DNA of 64,000 nt from the IMG/VR virus record IMGVR_UViG_3300031368_000001, positions 1-64,000 of that record. One strand, 5' to 3'. The DNA comes from a virus. The notes beneath the pieces were generated by a model. That model searched no databases, was not told the origin of the DNA, and was given only the letters and a program-made list of their open reading frames with translations. Below are positions 2,381 through 50,783 of this stretch, piece by piece (the stretch's first letter is position 1; each line of letters opens with the position of its first letter). The position numbers were made by a program, and so were the translations under genes.

Positions 2381-4663
2381 TTACTCCACTTTTAATCCTT
2401 CTAAAGTAACTCCAAAGGTTATAGGACTTGGATTAATCGTAAATGCACTTACCGCATTTGAGGTGGTTTCGTTTGCTGCTGATTCATCTTGCCCGCCAAT
2501 GTAATATGTCTTTGCATCACTTGGATTTAATCCTGTAGAGTCATAACTGAATGATGTACCATAGCCTGCCCCACAAGCCCCTTGTGTTTCTACCGTAGCA
2601 AGGTTTGTCAAATCATCCTCATCCGCTGCGTCTGATTCTCCTATTCTACACACCGCACACTCGTCAGTATCCCATGTAACTGTAACCGTTGTGGTTGCAC
2701 TTGGATATTCTACTGTGGGAAGGGGGACAATATTGCCAATAACGGGAGGGGTTGTATCTCCTTCACCTTCTCCTTCGTATGCTCCTTGGTCTGGTGCAGA
2801 TCCGACTAAAACTATATTTCCGCTAGAGTCCTTATAGAGCCATACATACTCGCCATCAACTCTCGTAAAATCAGCAACTGTAATTGTATTGGTTGCATAA
2901 TTCACCGCTGAAATTTGCATACAGTCAGCAGCCCCGACTGTTGCTCCCACACAGATATAATCAGCAGCTATCGCAGAAAGTGATGATCCCCATGTGCCAT
3001 CTTGGAAATAAAGGGCATCAGTAACGATAAGAGAAGTTCCGCTGCTGGTATCACCAGCATGAACAGTGGTAAGATACGTTCCAGCGTCTATTGCCCCCGA
3101 ACCTGATTGCAATCTAAGATCGGGCAATGTTGTACTTGTTGGGTCAGATAGATCAGCATTAACGAATTTTGGATCACCATAAGCCGAACAATATGCTGAA
3201 GAACCGGTGCAAAAATTATTACTGAAAGTATTGTAATCTGCTATTTGTGCACCTAACGCCCAATCTCCGCCGCCAGAACCATAATCATAAAAGATATTAT
3301 TCTTAATAACATTATCTACTGTAGGCCACCCTGCTCTTGCTGTTCCGCTTGTTTCTTCGGCCCACGTTCCTGCCATACTAAATGTAAGTGTTGTATCATT
3401 AACTACCGTACAGGTATGATACCCGTTATAGTTGATAGTATTTTCAAAATACATCGCAACGCCAGTTTTGAATCTGGGTTCTGCTGCTGTAAGCACTACC
3501 GTTACAGTACCATCCACACCCTCAATAGAGGCTATCGATGCCCAGGCATAACCACCAGCAGTTCTAAAATTCTTACCTTGCCACTGAGGGCCATCATTCT
3601 CATACCGACCACTGTGATAAATTGTGTTATTGTAGAACCTATTATCATCCGAGATAGACGATGAACCACATTTAAAATAGATCCCATTGTTCTGAGCATC
3701 ATAAACTTCATTATACCTTATAATGTTTTTGGGGGCAGTAATTGTCATACCGTCCCCTCCATCATCATCAGGAGGCGGGCCAGACGGGCCGAATCTATTT
3801 CCCTCTACTAAGTTAAATTTATCCTCAGCATACCCGTCATATATCTGTATATTCCGGTTGCCGTACTTCCCGTTAGTGTCCGGGCCATAAGTGCAACCTC
3901 CAGGAGAATCCATGCTTCCTTCGTGATGAAAGTAGTTATTTCTGATAACATTGTATTTTGTAAATGTTTCGAGATTATGATGGCCTCCTGAGTAAAAAGT
4001 ACAATCCTCAATCGTATTATATCCGCTGCCGTTATCATATGAAGGAACACCTATTTGCATTCCTCCGGCATCATTACATCCATCAGTTACATAGCCAGTA
4101 TTTTTAATCGTACACCCATGTATCCAGTTATGGGTACAGGCGGTTCCGCCTTCGGTTAATCCATCCCATATTTGAATGGTTGATGAGCCAGCACCATCAA
4201 TTACACAGTTAGTTATTTCGTTATATGAACCTCCATGTGTAATCATCAATACTCTGTTCATTGTTGCTTCAGGGCCAACATCAATCCCGTCAATCTTAAT
4301 GTAGCTCCTACCAACCAGACAGATGCCGTGATAATAAGTGGTATAAGTTGTTGTAGTATTTTTTATAATAGGCTGTTCGTCTGTATGCGCCTGATAAGTA
4401 ATAACGTGACCTGCCGAACCTGAATTAGCTGGATAGATATGGGTATTGTATATCCCATCTCTCAGAATAACCACATCATCATCATCTGCATTGGCATTGG
4501 CCGTGGTAAGAGAACATGGTTTAGCAATATCCTCCGAGTCAGCCCATGAGTCTGTGCCGTCTGATGCAACATAATTAGTCGTTGCAAAAGCAGATGAGGC
4601 AAAAAATAAAACTATGCCTATAAGAAATATTAATTTATTCAGGTGAGCTACCAATTTGTTCAT
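2381..4663 (-). CDS. Secreted right-handed beta-helix (pectate-lyase-like) protein, putative depolymerase/adhesin
   Basis: Signal peptide MNKLVAHLNKLIFLIGIVLFFASSAFA; YVASDG..PCS cap; N-x-I-x-N-C/N repeats; DLRLQSGSGAIDAG motif. ORF-track start at 4897 overlaps the upstream gene, so 4663/4666 preferred. Confidence 0.8.
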   Translation of the reverse strand: MNKLVAHLNKLIFLIGIVLFFASSAFATTNYVASDGTDSWADSEDIAKPCSLTTANANADDDDVVILRDGIYNTHIYPANSGSAGHVITYQAHTDEQPIIKNTTTTYTTYYHGICLVGRSYIKIDGIDVGPEATMNRVLMITHGGSYNEITNCVIDGAGSSTIQIWDGLTEGGTACTHNWIHGCTIKNTGYVTDGCNDAGGMQIGVPSYDNGSGYNTIEDCTFYSGGHHNLETFTKYNVIRNNYFHHEGSMDSPGGCTYGPDTNGKYGNRNIQIYDGYAEDKFNLVEGNRFGPSGPPPDDDGGDGMTITAPKNIIRYNEVYDAQNNGIYFKCGSSSISDDNRFYNNTIYHSGRYENDGPQWQGKNFRTAGGYAWASIASIEGVDGTVTVVLTAAEPRFKTGVAMYFENTINYNGYHTCTVVNDTTLTFSMAGTWAEETSGTARAGWPTVDNVIKNNIFYDYGSGGGDWALGAQIADYNTFSNNFCTGSSAYCSAYGDPKFVNADLSDPTSTTLPDLRLQSGSGAIDAGTYLTTVHAGDTSSGTSLIVTDALYFQDGTWGSSLSAIAADYICVGATVGAADCMQISAVNYATNTITVADFTRVDGEYVWLYKDSSGNIVLVGSAPDQGAYEGEGEGDTTPPVIGNIVPLPTVEYPSATTTVTVTWDTDECAVCRIGESDAADEDDLTNLATVETQGACGAGYGTSFSYDSTGLNPSDAKTYYIGGQDESAANETTSNAVSAFTINPSPITFGVTLEGLKVE

Positions 4664-34392: not shown

Positions 34393-34429
34393 GTTTCAAT
34401 CCTTGTTTTAGTAGACCCCCGCCCTTCAC
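34393..34429 (-). CRISPR. Solitary CRISPR repeat unit (not an array); Racr-like ncRNA candidate
   Basis: 37 nt GTGAAGGGCGGGGGTCTACTAAAACAAGGATTGAAAC with canonical ATTGAAAC 3' end. Confidence 0.75.
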
Positions 34430-40460: not shown

Positions 40461-40514
40461 CAAACAACAATTTACCAGCTGTAAACAAACAACAAATTAC
40501 CAAAGGAGGTAAAA

Positions 40515-40736
40515 ATGTTTGAAGTATTATTCTTTAACAATGGAAGTTCTGCTTGTCTGAAAGATGGAAAACAGGTACTAGAATTACAGGAATCATGGCT
40601 TTTGTTATATGTAAAATTCCTAGAAGAAAAAGGGATTGATCCTACTGATGGCATTTTCAGTATGCCAGGAGGGGAAGAAGTAAAAGTTTTCAAAACCGGT
40701 AGTGACTATAACTGGAGATTTCTATCAAAATCATGA
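40515..40736 (+). CDS. Hypothetical protein
   Basis: AGGAGG RBS. Confidence 0.65.
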   Translation: MFEVLFFNNGSSACLKDGKQVLELQESWLLLYVKFLEEKGIDPTDGIFSMPGGEEVKVFKTGSDYNWRFLSKS

Positions 40737-46615: not shown

Positions 46616-47200
46616 TGATGCCTAAATATAAAGTAGTTTTGTTGTCGCCAATGCTAACCTGGGAGAAAGTAGATGCTGAATCAACTGAAAAGGCTGAAGA
46701 AGAATGTTGGAATGATCCATGCCTTGATCGAATAGATTTGACAGACGGGCCATTTTATATGGCCGCAGAGGAAATTGAGGAGGATGAAATTGAGTAAACC
46801 TAATCTCCTTGTAGTTACCTTCTTATATCTTTACTTTGTTGTCCGCGCGTAACCTTTTTTTTAGAAATACTACCTAAAGAAAGAGAGAAAGAATAAATGA
46901 AAATAGCCATAGTTAGCTCAAAAGACCTTGGCCTCAACTGCTGGTCACCAAAAAGATTTCTTGGATCCTGTGATCAGTGTGATAAAGTAATGAAATGTAA
47001 ATTACCAGAAGCCCGAGCAGGGAGAATTAAGTTACTAAATGGTAAAATTACTGAAGCTCATAAAATAGTGAAAAAATTAGAAGAGCAGAGATTCCAGGAA
47101 GTGAAAGAAGGGTTGAGGGAAGAGAGTAAATTGTAATTTGTTTATATACAGATATTTTTCTGGTTAATACTGTGCGTTATACGCAAAAGGAAACTTAAAT

Positions 47201-47392
47201 ATGAAATATATATATGCTGTACTCAGGGAGACAGGTGGAGCACACAAAAGTATGGACGTAATGAGCGTGTGGACAAACAAAAAACTCGCCCAGAAAGAGG
47301 CTAATAAATTGAATGTATTAGCATCGGAGGGCTATGAATGTGAAGTGCGTAGATGGATTGTAAATGAAACTGGTGATACAATTAACTGGTAG
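47201..47392 (+). CDS. Integron-cassette-borne hypothetical protein
   Basis: Bounded by GTTATACGC (47176) and GCGTATAAC (47392). Confidence 0.7.
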   Translation: MKYIYAVLRETGGAHKSMDVMSVWTNKKLAQKEANKLNVLASEGYECEVRRWIVNETGDTINW

Positions 47393-47393
47393 C

Positions 47394-47452
47394 GTATAAC
47401 CATGCCCCTGAAGCCAACAGCAAATAGCTGCGGCTTACCGGCGGCGTTAGGA
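47394..47452 (+). mobile_element. attC site (59 bp)
   Basis: GTATAAC...imperfect palindrome...GTTAGGA. Confidence 0.75.
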
Positions 47453-47459
47453 GTCAACA

Positions 47460-47729
47460 ATGAGTGTTGTCACAGATATTATTTTGGTTACTGCTATTGA
47501 GGATGGCGCATATAGACCATCATTCGACTTAGTTAAAGTCGACCAATACGCAGGCGGAGGCAAGGCGGTACAGTGCGATGTGTTTATGTCAGCCGTTAAC
47601 TACTTGGTTTTAGAGGATTTACTTGATTGGTTCAAGTCTGTAAGATGGGAATATCCAGAACAGGTGCAACTTTTTGTTAAAGGCGAACACGACGACAAGT
47701 TTGCTGTGTACTGCCCTGAAAACTCCTAA
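47460..47729 (+). CDS. Integron-cassette-borne hypothetical protein
   Basis: Stop lies in the ACTCCTAAC inverse core, which matches upstream GTTAGGAGT. Confidence 0.75.
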   Translation: MSVVTDIILVTAIEDGAYRPSFDLVKVDQYAGGGKAVQCDVFMSAVNYLVLEDLLDWFKSVRWEYPEQVQLFVKGEHDDKFAVYCPENS

Positions 47730-47790
47730 CCAATCGTTCAACAACCGACCGCCGATACAGCCCTGTGGCGGGTTAACTCAAACGTTAGGT
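47724..47790 (+). mobile_element. attC site (67 bp)
   Basis: TCCTAAC...GTTAGGT. Confidence 0.75.
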
Positions 47791-47950
47791 GGCAAGCATG
47801 AGAAAGCCTTTGACAGGGCATAGGCCATATCCGAGTGAAAGGATAGTACAGCCCATGGATAAGGCATCACACATGCAAGTCTGGTTGGCTATAACTATTA
47901 TTGGCAATTAGCATTGCTGGTAGTTTAGGCAGTTCGATTCTGCCATTGCC

Positions 47951-48012
47951 ACCTAATAAATCCCTGAACCAGACGCCATAAAGCTCGGCGCTGGTTAGCT
48001 CAAGCGTTAAGG
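47951..48012 (+). mobile_element. attC site (62 bp)
   Basis: ACCTAAT...AACCAG-CGCC/GGCG-CTGGTT...GTTAAGG. Confidence 0.75.
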
Positions 48013-48132
48013 AGGAAAAAAATGAAAATGTCAGTAAAAGAGTTTGATTCATTGACAAAGAGAGATTTTGACAATGGAGCGGTTAGGGATGCTATTCGCA
48101 ATAGCTTAAAAGAGTGTGAAAAATTGCTTGCC

Positions 48133-48194
48133 TCCCAACAAGTCGTTGAAGCAGACCGCGCTAATCGCACGACTGATTAACTCAGGCGTTATAA
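48133..48194 (+). mobile_element. attC site (62 bp)
   Basis: TCCCAAC...GTTATAA. Confidence 0.7.
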
Positions 48195-48207
48195 TTTAAG
48201 AGGAAAA

Positions 48208-48456
48208 ATGAAAGAAGAAAAAAAAATATGCGACATGATTTTAAGTACTGTTTCACGCTTCAATGATGCTCAAAGTATTGGGATTGAGGTTCTAGAGAAA
48301 TATAAGAACATGGATAAAGGCATAGTTCCAGAGTTGCAAGAAATCGCTTTTCATGTTCAGAGTTTAGCACGAGGCTGGCGTTCTCAGCAAGATCGGGCAG
48401 ATGAGTGTTATGAGAAATATGCTGCATATAAAAAATATTGCAATGAAAATCTATAA
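48208..48456 (+). CDS. Cassette-borne hypothetical protein (attC truncated)
   Basis: Starts after GTTATAA, ends in CTATAAC. Confidence 0.65.
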   Translation: MKEEKKICDMILSTVSRFNDAQSIGIEVLEKYKNMDKGIVPELQEIAFHVQSLARGWRSQQDRADECYEKYAAYKKYCNENL

Positions 48457-48474
48457 CAATAAGGAGGAAAAACC

Positions 48475-48744
48475 ATGCCAGGAGTAATTAATTACACAAA
48501 GCTCCCAGAAAGTCTAAGAGGGGGAGCACAAAGATGGATAGAAAATGGAATAGTTCCAGGAAGTTTTCTCACAGCAGTGATCCGTAATGATCTAACAGAA
48601 AGCTTTGCACAAGCTGATTATATTAATATCACTAAATTACAAGATATTGTGCACTTCTTTTACTGGGAAGCTCCAAGCCAGTGCTGGGGCTCAAAGGAAA
48701 AGATGATTGCATGGGGGAAAAAATTTAATGAGATAAGACCATGA
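48475..48744 (+). CDS. Hypothetical phage protein
   Basis: PGSFLTAV..NDL...AD...P..CWGS; AGGAGG RBS. Confidence 0.75.
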   Translation: MPGVINYTKLPESLRGGAQRWIENGIVPGSFLTAVIRNDLTESFAQADYINITKLQDIVHFFYWEAPSQCWGSKEKMIAWGKKFNEIRP

Positions 48745-49004
48745 ATATGAGAAGCGCTATGGCCAGCGCAAGAGCGAGAACTTTAAATGAAAAATTCCAT
48801 AAAAGTGCTGAAAACACTGTAAATAGATTACTAACAAGCCCCACACATTCAGCAAGAGTCTCTACAAAGTTAGCTAAACATATTTTGATACAACATGAAA
48901 CTCTCTTATATAATGGAATAGTATATTCTACTCACGTAAGAAATATAGGCGCTGGTGTAAAGGAATTATATTTAAAGGAATTTCATGAGGAGATAAGACC
49001 ATGA
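48741..49004 (+). CDS. Hypothetical protein
   Basis: ATGA coupling on both sides. Confidence 0.6.
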   Translation: MNMRSAMASARARTLNEKFHKSAENTVNRLLTSPTHSARVSTKLAKHILIQHETLLYNGIVYSTHVRNIGAGVKELYLKEFHEEIRP

Positions 49005-49273
49005 CTGATAATGATGCCATGACCGACAATAACACCATCCGTGATGTAAACACCGTCCGTGATGTAAACACCGTCCGTGATGTAAACACCGTCCGTGATG
49101 TAATAAAATTTAAAGTACATGTGATAAGAACAGGCTGGGCAAGTTTGGATATTGCTATCGCTGCAAAAGATAAGGATAGTGCAAAAACAAAAATTATGGA
49201 TACTATTGGAGACTATGAATTCTCAGAATATGATGCTGAGTATGAAATAGAATCTATGGAGATAATACCATGA
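49001..49273 (+). CDS. Hypothetical protein with N-terminal RDVNTV repeats
   Basis: 18-bp in-frame repeat x4. Confidence 0.6.
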   Translation: MTDNDAMTDNNTIRDVNTVRDVNTVRDVNTVRDVIKFKVHVIRTGWASLDIAIAAKDKDSAKTKIMDTIGDYEFSEYDAEYEIESMEIIP

Positions 49274-49497
49274 CTGACAATACTATGACTGATAATACCA
49301 TGACCGATAATAATATGACTGATAATAACACCGTCCGTGATGTAATGAAAGATCGTATCCGGGATCTGTTGGCTGGATATTTTAGGATAGATAATTTAGA
49401 TGTAGACGCTGATCTCGTAGCCAATATAGCTGATGAAGCTTTTTCGGTGACAGGGATAAGTGAGAAAGAACAGGATGAGGAGTGGAAAATTTTATAG
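49270..49497 (+). CDS. Hypothetical protein with N-terminal MTDNT repeats
   Basis: 15-bp repeat x4. Confidence 0.6.
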   Translation: MTDNTMTDNTMTDNNMTDNNTVRDVMKDRIRDLLAGYFRIDNLDVDADLVANIADEAFSVTGISEKEQDEEWKIL

Positions 49498-49868
49498 AGG
49501 TTAGCTAATACAGGCAGTGATTATAAAGAGCCCCAAGAAGGAACCTGGTGTGGTTTTAATCATTGCCTGTATTTTTATGTCTGGGTTTTCTCTTGTTCTA
49601 AGAGATCAAAAATGAAAAATAAAAGCCGGTCCTTTAGGAAATCCTTAATGGTTGTGAGAAAAAGTAGCTGTGAGAAAAAAAAAGAAAATATCATGAATAC
49701 TTACATAGGCACTTACCAGGATATGATAGAAAGAACTGTAGAGCTGATCCTTGCCGCGGCAGAAAAAATTCATAATAAAGATGCTATAAGTCGGATTTAC
49801 ACGGCCAACAGAGAGGTTGACACAAAAATTGGCAATATTATGGAGAATATCAGAAAGAAGAAGAGATC

Positions 49869-50084
49869 ATGACTAAACAGGAAAAGCGTAAGTACTGCAT
49901 CGGCTGTAGAGACAATTTCTACAACGGCAATAATCCATATGGCATTAAGGAATGCTGGAATCTTAAAGATGCAAAATTCGTGAAAAGAAAAAAGATTCCT
50001 ATAGATTTGAGCCCACCTTATGATCATATAAAAAAACAGAAAGTTTTGAGCTGCTATGGCCAAAAGGGGTATGTATATTGGTAG
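49869..50084 (+). CDS. Cys-rich microprotein
   Basis: CIGC...ECW...SCY. Confidence 0.65.
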   Translation: MTKQEKRKYCIGCRDNFYNGNNPYGIKECWNLKDAKFVKRKKIPIDLSPPYDHIKKQKVLSCYGQKGYVYW

Positions 50085-50178
50085 TTAGGTGGTAAATGCT
50101 GCTTATAAGCAGAGGGTCAGCTTGTATCTGACGTTTGATAGTAAACAAAACTATCATGCAGGGTTAAATCTGTATACC

Positions 50179-50236
50179 ACCTAACCAACCCACTAAGCTC
50201 GATAGCTAAAATTGCTGGTTAATTCAAGCGTTAGAT
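50179..50236 (+). mobile_element. attC site (58 bp)
   Basis: TACCACCTAAC is the exact complement of GTTAGGTGGTA at 50084; ends GTTAGAT. Confidence 0.7.
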
Positions 50237-50253
50237 TCATCAAGGAGGTAAAC

Positions 50254-50451
50254 ATGGAAATAGACGAAATTATAAATAACTTGGGCAAAAAAATATCAAC
50301 TCCAAAAGGAAATCAATTATTAGCTGGTTTTCAAATTGCAGTGTTAATGGAAAACAATAAATTAAAAGCATATCCTCAATCAATATCATTAATCTGTTGG
50401 TCAGATAATGGTGGAAAATATATGCATTGGGCAATTGATTGTAAAAAATAA
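50254..50451 (+). CDS. Cassette-borne hypothetical protein
   Basis: AGGAGG RBS; stop inside AAATAAC. Confidence 0.65.
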   Translation: MEIDEIINNLGKKISTPKGNQLLAGFQIAVLMENNKLKAYPQSISLICWSDNGGKYMHWAIDCKK

Positions 50452-50506
50452 CAAGCCGGTTGAGTCTAACGCTCATAAACTCGCGTGTCTTACCTCACCA
50501 TTATAC
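50446..50506 (+). mobile_element. Degenerate attC site
   Basis: AAATAACAAGCCGGTTGAG...ATTATAC (GTT mutated). Confidence 0.5.
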
Positions 50507-50539
50507 ATCCTAATAGCGTCTTAACGAAAGGAAAATACC

Positions 50540-50689
50540 ATGAAAGTAGACCTAATAGCTATTGGCTATGAATGGATCTGTCTGAAGTGTGGACATCTTA
50601 ATAATGAGTTCGAGATATTAAAAGAAGTTACCTGCGTAGAATGCGGTGAGATTTATGAAGTAGGTGAGACAGAACATGCGTGTGGGTGA
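50540..50689 (+). CDS. Zn-ribbon microprotein (49 aa)
   Basis: WICLKCG...CVECG. Confidence 0.65.
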   Translation: MKVDLIAIGYEWICLKCGHLNNEFEILKEVTCVECGEIYEVGETEHACG

Positions 50690-50783
50690 GACAGAACATG
50701 CGTGTGGGTGAGGCAGAACATGCTTATAGGTGAGACAGAACATACTTATAGATAAAAAAGCAAAATAGAGGAGGTGAGTATAC

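Follow-up and report, generated by a model that had tools for sequence, protein, structure and literature searches.

How does a virus come to carry rows of small genes partitioned by integron-type recombination sites when it encodes no integrase to move them? The question is raised by a locus between positions 47140 and 50530 of IMGVR_UViG_3300031368_000001, a linear, 108,285-nt IMG/VR phage record that lacks end repeats and is ~77% complete (CheckV estimate). The window analyzed here is the first 64 kb of this record. Integrons are viewed as devices of bacteria, whose cassettes, as recent studies show, store antiphage defense genes. A sequence-only reading of the window had noted attC-like palindromes separating single small open reading frames (ORFs), had found no intI integrase gene, and had proposed that the phage gains or shuffles early genes with a host integron integrase. 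Our analysis adds to that reading an attI-like site at 47140–47178, a second array and the attC-free nature of 48195–50083. Collectively, the data argue for two arrays of genuine attC sites, each headed by an attI homologue, on which a host IntI probably acts in trans.

attC architecture in the phage arrays

A consensus scan of the whole record returned 15 intact attC sites in two arrays, 5 in the window and 10 outside it (102.95–106.21 kb, minus strand). In addition, the window array has one decayed end. The five intact window sites lie on the plus strand, exactly where the sequence-only reading had placed attC-like elements:

attC1, 47394–47452, plus strand: 59 nt, "type a" (CTGAAGCC.AC...GCGGCTTAYCGGCGGCGTTA); R1 score 55.5 bits, E = 3e-12
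attC2, 47724–47790, plus strand: 67 nt, overlapping the stop codon of ORF B; R1 score 55.2 bits
attC3, 47951–48012, plus strand: 62 nt; R1 score 65.3 bits, E = 6e-15
attC4, 48133–48194, plus strand: 62 nt, final site of sub-array 1a; R1 score 57.1 bits
attC5, 50179–50236, plus strand: 58 nt, aligned with the aadA7 site; R1 score 52.9 bits

These five share the layout xxTAAC, 5 nt, CTGAAC/GTTCAAC ... GGTTAACTCARGC, GTTAxxx. All 15 sites, of 58–72 nt, contain (nearly) invariant TAAC and GTTA, with spacers of 5 nt after R'' and 4–6 nt before R'. The order R''-spacer-L''...L'-spacer-R' is present throughout, and several R'' and R' boxes deviate at one position from the strict RYYYAAC/GTTRRRY consensus, as do many natural attC sites.

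Over the 15 sites, pairing in the R box, L box and central stem amounts to 89.6%, and sliding the partners lowers it to 26–42%. The observed covariation of 0.418, compared with 0.153 in shuffles, was reached in 0 of 500 of these, and compensatory changes occur at six pairs. The bulged A in CCG[A]C, a T on the bottom strand, is invariant, and there is an extra base on the L'' arm; for this extra L-box base, the bottom strands of attC3 and attC4 would have C in place of the usual G. When the sites are rebuilt as in an excised circle, the bottom strand closes an R box of 8–11 bp, followed by an unpaired spacer and a stem with a single-base bulge, and the fold gains 3–8 kcal/mol over the array form in most sites. 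For example, attC1 folds at −18.6 kcal/mol with its R box closed when reconstituted and at −10.7 kcal/mol in array form. Thus the R and L boxes and the extrahelical base, whose lack in bottom-strand folds the sequence-only reading had named as grounds for rejecting it, are there.

R1, the source of the scores above, is a covariance model trained only on the 15 phage sites. It scores all of them at 51–68 bits and finds nothing else below E = 0.7 in the 108-kb record. In the Shewanella prophage M16-3, R1 detects six intergenic sites on the correct strand (E = 3.6e-6 to 0.36), which sit in the cassette array beside the annotated IntI and in that prophage's second array. R1 also detects sites in arrays of Desulfobacterales and Desulfobacteraceae metagenome-assembled genomes (MAGs), one of which encodes a full IntI (452.8 bits). 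Over 703 kb of other viral loci it gives two matches, both flanking one cassette gene. An exact attC pattern, which was too strict, matched nothing in the viral and genome collections, and neither Rfam (at gathering thresholds and at E ≤ 10) nor ARAGORN calls an RNA family or tRNA at the attC sites or in the ORF-less cassettes.

The 15 phage sites are also collinear, column by column, with attC_aadA7, for which the sequence printed in Table S3 of Qi et al. 2023 (PMC9892861) was the reference. The layout of attC2, TAAC-CAATC-GTTCAAC...TTAACTCAAACGTTAGG, agrees with it, and the final 18 nt of attC5, TTAATTCAAGCGTTAGAT, are identical to it at 18 of 18 bases. Elements nearly identical to attC_aadA7 were also seen in a GC-rich, 4.6-kb viral contig (IMGVR_UViG_3300020577_003582, L098), in which an RNA-ligase gene lies between two identical copies (2680–2737 and 3303–3362) that are inverted relative to the genes.

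Because the phage elements have attC architecture and carry the G|TT cassette signature described below, because R1 finds their counterparts beside an annotated IntI, and because they are collinear with attC_aadA7, they are, as judged from sequence, genuine integron-type attC sites. With 5 and 10 sites and no intI, the arrays are clusters of attC sites lacking integrases (CALINs) in the sense of Cury et al. 2016 (at least two attC sites with intI not nearby).

The cassette signature

In the window array the attC sites delimit the following units, and a second array lies farther along the record:

Cassette A, 47177–47446, plus strand: 63-aa ORF at 47201–47392; the cassette start, GTTATACGC, and the cassette's own R'', GCGTATAAC, are reverse complements (9/9)
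Cassette B, 47447–47784, plus strand: 89-aa ORF at 47460–47729; GTTAGGAGT/ACTCCTAAC, 9/9
Cassette C, 47785–48006, plus strand: no ORF; TTAGGTGGCAA/TTGCCACCTAA, 11/11
Cassette D, 48007–48188, plus strand: 52-aa ORF at 48022–48180 that reads through most of attC4
Inter-array stretch, 48195–50083, plus strand: 1.9 kb with seven codirectional small ORFs, overlapping stops and starts, and internal tandem repeats D1, D2 and D4
Lone core GTTAGGTGGTA, 50084–50094, plus strand: preceded by neither attI nor attC; 11/11 complementary to the R'' of attC5
Cassette F, 50085–50230, plus strand: no ORF; candidate five-arm cloverleaf RNA at 50087–50182 with a 7-nt loop, CUUGUAU
Cassette G, 50231–50530, plus strand: 65-aa ORF at 50254–50451, then the decayed array end
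Second array, record 102953–106399 (L003 2953–6399), minus strand, outside the window: an attI precedes ten cassettes, all with intact attC sites

The sequence-only reading had seen in four cassettes an inverse core that extends the complement of the cassette's own upstream core, and the quoted pairs are exact inverted repeats (I22 and I23, 9/9 each; I12 and I11, 11/11 each). In cassette D the R'' matches its own start at ~8 of 10 positions with a gap. Over 16 cassettes, the bases beyond GTT match the complement of the cassette's own R'' at 6.25 of 9 positions on average, compared with 3.35 for non-own pairs and 3.57 for the contiguous downstream core, and the observed sum was reached in 0 of 100,000 permutations. 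This own-core footprint is the trace of a G|TT crossover between once-circular units, which terminator hairpins cannot yield. The earlier description of it as the signature of IntI-mobilized circular cassettes is therefore borne out.

The same data bear on whether the hairpins merely resemble attC by chance and are in fact regulatory repeats of the phage (terminators or REP-like elements, for example). The minimum free energy (MFE) folds of the array forms are indeed not unusually stable (z −0.5 to −1.4), since the R' in the array belongs to the next cassette. A sigma-70 scan found no promoter in attI, and terminators were not in excess. However, the cassette signature, the reciprocal R1 matches in true integrons, the attC_aadA7 collinearity and the homology of the array heads to sites beside intI (next section) together rule out chance or regulatory hairpins, an explanation that we regard as exceedingly improbable.

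An attI homologue at the head of each array

Each array begins with a copy of the same site:

attI-like site, 47140–47178, plus strand: crossover at G47176|TT; heads the window array
attI-like site, copy 2, record 106399–106361, minus strand: heads the second array

The two copies agree at 36 of 39 positions, their similarity extends neither farther upstream nor beyond GTT, and the record contains no third copy. A 20-mer from the site was unmatched in IMG/VR. In metagenomes it gave 11 matches, of which only one is real, a 1.5-kb contig (L173) that carries the 3' 29 nt of attI exactly, followed by three different cassettes with the same attC family; the other ten have neither the rest of the site nor attC. 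A looser pattern led to a second viral contig, IMGVR_UViG_3300008516_000145 (hereafter G005; 48.9 kb, 53% complete), which has three arrays of four to five cassettes with an attI variant at every head. G005 and the phage analyzed here have almost no other genes in common.

The attI consensus was also found in bacteria. It occurs in 4 of 401 genomes from the phylum sample of a Desulfobacterales MAG (Desulfobacterota), in 9 of 61 genomes of one family within Desulfobacterota and in 0 of 151 Pseudomonadota genomes, and a reversed-pattern control gave 0 in all three samples. The pattern is absent from four MAGs that bear an RNA-ligase cassette described below. Two Desulfobacterota genomes, G265 and G452, carry the site 127 nt away from a full-length intI in divergent orientation (451 and 444 bits, respectively, against a cut-off of 265), and the attI is followed by a cassette whose attC R'', TACATAAC, complements its start, GTTATGTA. 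This divergent intI neighbor is a property of the bacterial homologues and not of the phage copies. An 11-way alignment of phages, the metagenome contig and bacteria shows ~45 nt of homology that ends at GTT in 11 of 11 sequences, and GTTA-type boxes can be read in it by eye (GYTAWTATAC, TGSTTAATA and CGTTA). Since the same site adjoins intI in two Desulfobacterota genomes and the similarity ends at GTT, the alignment identifies the phage site as a homologue of a genuine attI.

Three genomes of the candidate host family (G441, G419 and G083; e.g., L195, L196, L201 and L202) contain two to seven attI copies each, mostly on contigs without intI. These could be multi-platform integrons or resident phage-like elements. 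The two G083 copies have more than 120 nt of upstream sequence in common.

Cassettes and their cargo

Of the 16 cassettes, 13 contain one ORF, one contains two and two contain none. Pfam and PHROGs searches with 24 cassette and neighboring ORFs recognized a single protein, an RNA ligase (PF17720, phrog_14301) in the second array. The cassette A ORF thus has no Pfam or PHROG match, while that of cassette B has seven homologues at 48–55% identity on unrelated contigs, none of them named. Cassette ORFs have a GC content of 0.368, compared with 0.375 for the phage backbone, and the cassette pool therefore appears to be phage-adapted and not freshly acquired from a GC-richer host. The cassettes are co-oriented with the flanking phage genes, from which we infer that phage transcription runs through them.

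The two ORF-less cassettes are predicted to fold strongly. The candidate RNA of cassette C (47787–47954) has an MFE of −62.2 kcal/mol (z −4.0, 0 of 200 shuffles) and contains a T-arm-like hairpin, GGCAG-UUCGAUU-CUGCC, and the cassette F cloverleaf has an MFE of −33.5 kcal/mol (z −4.75, 0 of 200 shuffles). Neither is called by ARAGORN or Rfam, and no homologue of either occurs in the 3.2 Mb of loci compared. Cassettes C and F may encode structured RNAs; this stays a hypothesis because their "acceptor" stems are formed by the same bases as the extended R'/R'' pairing.

Cassette F and cassette G follow the lone core, in which the G at 50084 is also the final base of the TAG stop codon of the ORF at 49869–50084. 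This bare G|TT is a candidate secondary, non-att insertion point and would fit IntI-mediated insertion outside att sites. The stretch that separates it from attC4 is read as phage backbone between two sub-arrays. Within and beyond this stretch, three paralogous small ORFs (48990–49345 and 50660–50765) open with an identical 15 nt, GAGATAAGACCATGA, and contain in-frame tandem repeats of 18 nt (TVRDV) and 15 nt (MTDNx); a separate 22-nt repeat, in four tandem copies, follows a 49-aa zinc-ribbon ORF recorded with them.

Among the cargo of the second array are a zinc-ribbon ORF, a membrane protein of 70 aa, a cassette with two ORFs and the DUF5565 RNA ligase (181 aa); the array stops before a 122-aa ORF and a UvrD-type helicase. 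Directly upstream of its attI, at record 106425–106775 (minus strand; L003 6425–6775), lies a 116-aa ORF with a GGQ motif (SGHGGQ), which, read by eye, resembles an RF-1/ArfB-like peptidyl-tRNA hydrolase domain. Considered with the tRNA-shaped cassettes and the RNA ligase, this ORF may point to a theme of translation repair.

Cassettes shared with bacteria and another phage

The fourth cassette of the second array, A2_4, has ~93% DNA identity with the first cassette of array B in G005, and the flanks of the two are unrelated. The RNA ligase (PF17720/DUF5565) has thousands of homologues at 60–81% identity in distant phyla. Its cassette has 79% protein identity with a cassette in a Desulfobacteraceae MAG (L007), and the cassette boundaries correspond (GTTATATGC/GCATATAAC in the MAG and GTTATATTC/GAATATAAC in the phage). 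In another MAG, L010, an attC lies just after the stop codon of the RNA-ligase gene. Viral contigs with the RNA ligase, one of 110 kb, are unrelated to this phage and carry no attC there. These comparisons indicate that cassettes are common to bacterial integrons and another phage at different array positions, with past recombination at G|TT. In addition, two ordinary phage genes with no attC nearby (window 40506–40721 and record 100536–100709) are homologues (64% and 44% identity) of genes inside an attC array of G005, a hint that genes pass between the cassette pool and the fixed part of the phage genome.

Source of the recombinase

The absence of intI noted for the window extends to the whole record. 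Profiles TIGR02249 and PF00589 gave 0 candidates in the 108 kb, tblastn with two IntI proteins gave nothing below E = 1, and the 49-kb G005 also lacks a tyrosine recombinase. What, then, would recombine the arrays? The phage could encode its own recombinase, an IntI or a small Xer-like tyrosine recombinase, in the ~23% of the genome missing from this linear record, and IMG/VR does hold 25 contigs with IntI homologues at 44–55% identity to the G265 IntI. In integrons, however, the recombinase gene adjoins attI, and the six phage-type attI sites on three contigs have codirectional small ORFs upstream and no neighboring recombinase. Moreover, attI was found in 0 of the 25 IntI-bearing viral loci, even with up to 5 mismatches allowed, and no tyrosine recombinase occurs in the 108 kb and 49 kb available. 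A phage-encoded enzyme is thus quite unlikely.

Alternatively, the arrays could be passive relics: parts of a host's chromosomal integron, cassettes together with their attI, that were gained by illegitimate recombination and are now ordinary, immobile phage genes, their hairpins at most weak terminators. Vibrio anguillarum phages do bear host chromosomal integron fragments (Qi et al. 2023, PMC9892861), the nearly equal GC of cassettes and backbone fits long residence, one site has decayed, and the two G005 cassette genes with ordinary homologues here are in keeping with such a fate. However, 15 of 15 attC sites are intact and high-scoring, and most keep the 8–11 bp of R''/R' complementarity that is relevant only when a cassette is excised. 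The five attI-headed arrays in two unrelated phages differ in content and show no trace of intI upstream, the cassette common to both phages stands at different ranks, and cassettes F and G sit at a bare GTT within phage DNA. We consider relics unlikely.

The reading that we favor is that a host IntI probably acts in trans on the phage attI and attC sites. It is plausible because IntI1 recombines phage attC sites (PMC9892861), and the earlier proposal of host integrase use is strengthened because the array heads are homologous to attI sites beside intI in Desulfobacterota and because a cassette is shared at different ranks by two unrelated phages. The phage platform consists of attI followed by single-gene or ORF-less cassettes, each closed by a classical attC, with two such platforms in the record. 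If the infected host had a matching class of integron, its IntI would bind the phage attI and the folded attC bottom strands, which should be plentiful in the single-stranded DNA of the replicating phage. Recombination between attC sites at G|TT would free cassettes as circles, and attI × attC recombination would admit cassettes from the shared pool at the phage attI; now and then a cassette would instead enter at a bare GTT, such as that at 50084. That the enzyme is the host IntI, that recombination is still ongoing and that the cargo serves infection is what we infer for these arrays. The cargo (the RNA ligase, the two candidate structured RNAs and ~13 tiny proteins) could be active in tRNA repair or counter-defense.

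Several observations weigh against this reading. First, the one line of evidence for IntI recombination at G|TT is historical, the footprint preserved in the cassette signature. With the record 77% and G005 53% complete, an integrase could sit in unsequenced DNA. The A2_4 cassette and its G005 counterpart are ~93% identical in the gene and differ in the middle of the attC, for which G|TT crossover alone is insufficient. The R'' region of attC4, TGCTTGCCTCCCAAC (48125–48139, inside ORF D), is complementary to the start of cassette C (47784–47798) at 13 of 15 positions, better than to its own start, a match that may be the trace of an older cassette boundary. No attC interrupts 48195–50083, where R1 finds no match and the GC is backbone-like. 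The sixth site, which the sequence-only reading had placed at 50446, is real in its inverted core, TGAGTCTAACGCT (50461–50473; ~15 nt from that coordinate), which is complementary to AGCGTTAGATTCA (50227–50239) at 12 of 13 positions; as a site it is ambiguous and decayed, with unrecognizable L boxes and R', no R1 score and a weak fold (z −0.5). The attC sites of bacteria with the matching attI score poorly with R1; therefore, the phage cassette pool is not simply the pool of those genomes. The candidate host family gave no close prophage relative, the portal protein leading only to Mu-like homologues at 28–33% identity. Finally, a 32-nt pattern from a CRISPR-like repeat of the phage was unmatched, with up to 3 mismatches, in the 61 genomes of that family.

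The phage and its candidate host

The record derives from a tailed phage, as indicated by a tape-measure protein, a major tail protein and a head protease encoded on the minus strand at 1–27 kb, and it has a Mu-type portal at ~93–95 kb. Its other products include a Prim-Pol, SNF2 and UvrD helicases and a DNA ligase. The window array falls in a plus-strand block at 30–51 kb whose ORFs are mostly tiny; the earlier designation of the array's surroundings as an early region stems from gene layout only. The phage, large and uncultivated, shows no lysogeny genes and is apparently virulent. Megablast and tblastn against cultured phages found no close relative (protein identity ≤36%), and relatives sought in IMG/VR through a DUF2201 protein reached only 28% identity at best. 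The attI match points, by sequence similarity, to a host in one family of Desulfobacterota.

Two large proteins encoded on the minus strand were noted in the region pair L002 5807–9022 and L001 7638–10829. One is a 1,071-aa ATP-dependent DNA ligase with an inserted LAGLIDADG domain, intein-like in appearance, and the other, the second entry, is a 1,063-aa protein joining NADAR and DprA-like domains. The CRISPR-like repeat mentioned above is solitary, ends in ATTGAAAC and lies at window positions 34393–34429 on the minus strand.

Relation to known systems

Virulent phages with CALINs have already been published, as has the proposal that cassettes are exchanged with bacterial integrons. Qi et al. 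2023 (Front Microbiol, PMC9892861) described virulent-phage CALINs with two to four predicted attC sites and no attI, demonstrated IntI1-driven recombination of phage attC sites in vivo, and proposed that cassettes travel between phages and bacterial integrons. The arrays described here are similarly composed of co-oriented, attC-bounded cassettes in a phage genome without intI. In contrast to those CALINs, however, the two arrays of this phage comprise 15 intact sites and are each headed by a homologue of a host-clade attI, and the platform recurs in the unrelated G005; moreover, the phage is unrelated to PH101 or any cultured phage.

Classical integrons, whether class 1 or the chromosomal examples of G265 and G452, share with the phage arrays an attI, promoterless attC-ended cassettes, the G|TT crossover, an R'' that complements the cassette's own start and ORFs that often finish inside attC, and the G265 and G452 attI sites belong to the same sequence family as those of the phage. 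The phage differs in having no intI at attI or elsewhere in the record, in having several attI platforms on opposite strands inside phage operons and in the phage-like composition of its cargo. The Shewanella prophage vB_SspM_M16-3 (MZ568829), in which a complete integron and a CALIN both open with the same attI (Qi et al., PMC9892861), also combines two arrays from one attI in a phage genome, and its attC sites are those recognized by R1. However, M16-3, an inactive P2-like prophage of 40 kb, encodes its own IntI, whereas the phage described here has neither IntI nor lysogeny genes. Finally, IntI-catalyzed cassette insertion outside att sites in bacterial genomes, as described in the abstract of a preprint (bioRxiv 10.1101/2022.09.11.507474), would account for cassettes F and G directly after the bare G|TT. 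The preprint concerns bacteria, whereas here the event lies in a phage and, its right-hand junction being decayed, is not reconstructable.

What is new is the presence of host-clade attI sites on a phage, several per genome, with arrays of up to ten cassettes, their reappearance in an unrelated phage that has a cassette in common with this one, and the ORF-less cassettes that are candidates for structured RNAs. Somewhat short of even odds, we suggest that these represent a lineage-spanning class of phage-resident, integrase-less platforms, in which virulent phages of integron-bearing hosts would keep several host-type attI sites before accessory operons, parasitize the host IntI and draw on a phage-adapted pool that moves among unrelated phages and bacterial integrons. 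Such a pool, with its ORF-less cassettes for tRNA-shaped RNAs and its RNA-repair ligase, would be a counter-defense mirror image of bacterial defense-gene biobanks.

The finding supplies a named attI/IntI pair and a candidate host clade for an uncultivated phage, and it offers a set of tiny genes and two candidate structured RNAs as counter-defense candidates. More broadly, these platforms would connect the phage and bacterial cassette pools and would allow an infecting virus to rearrange its own accessory genes with the stress-induced integrase of its host.

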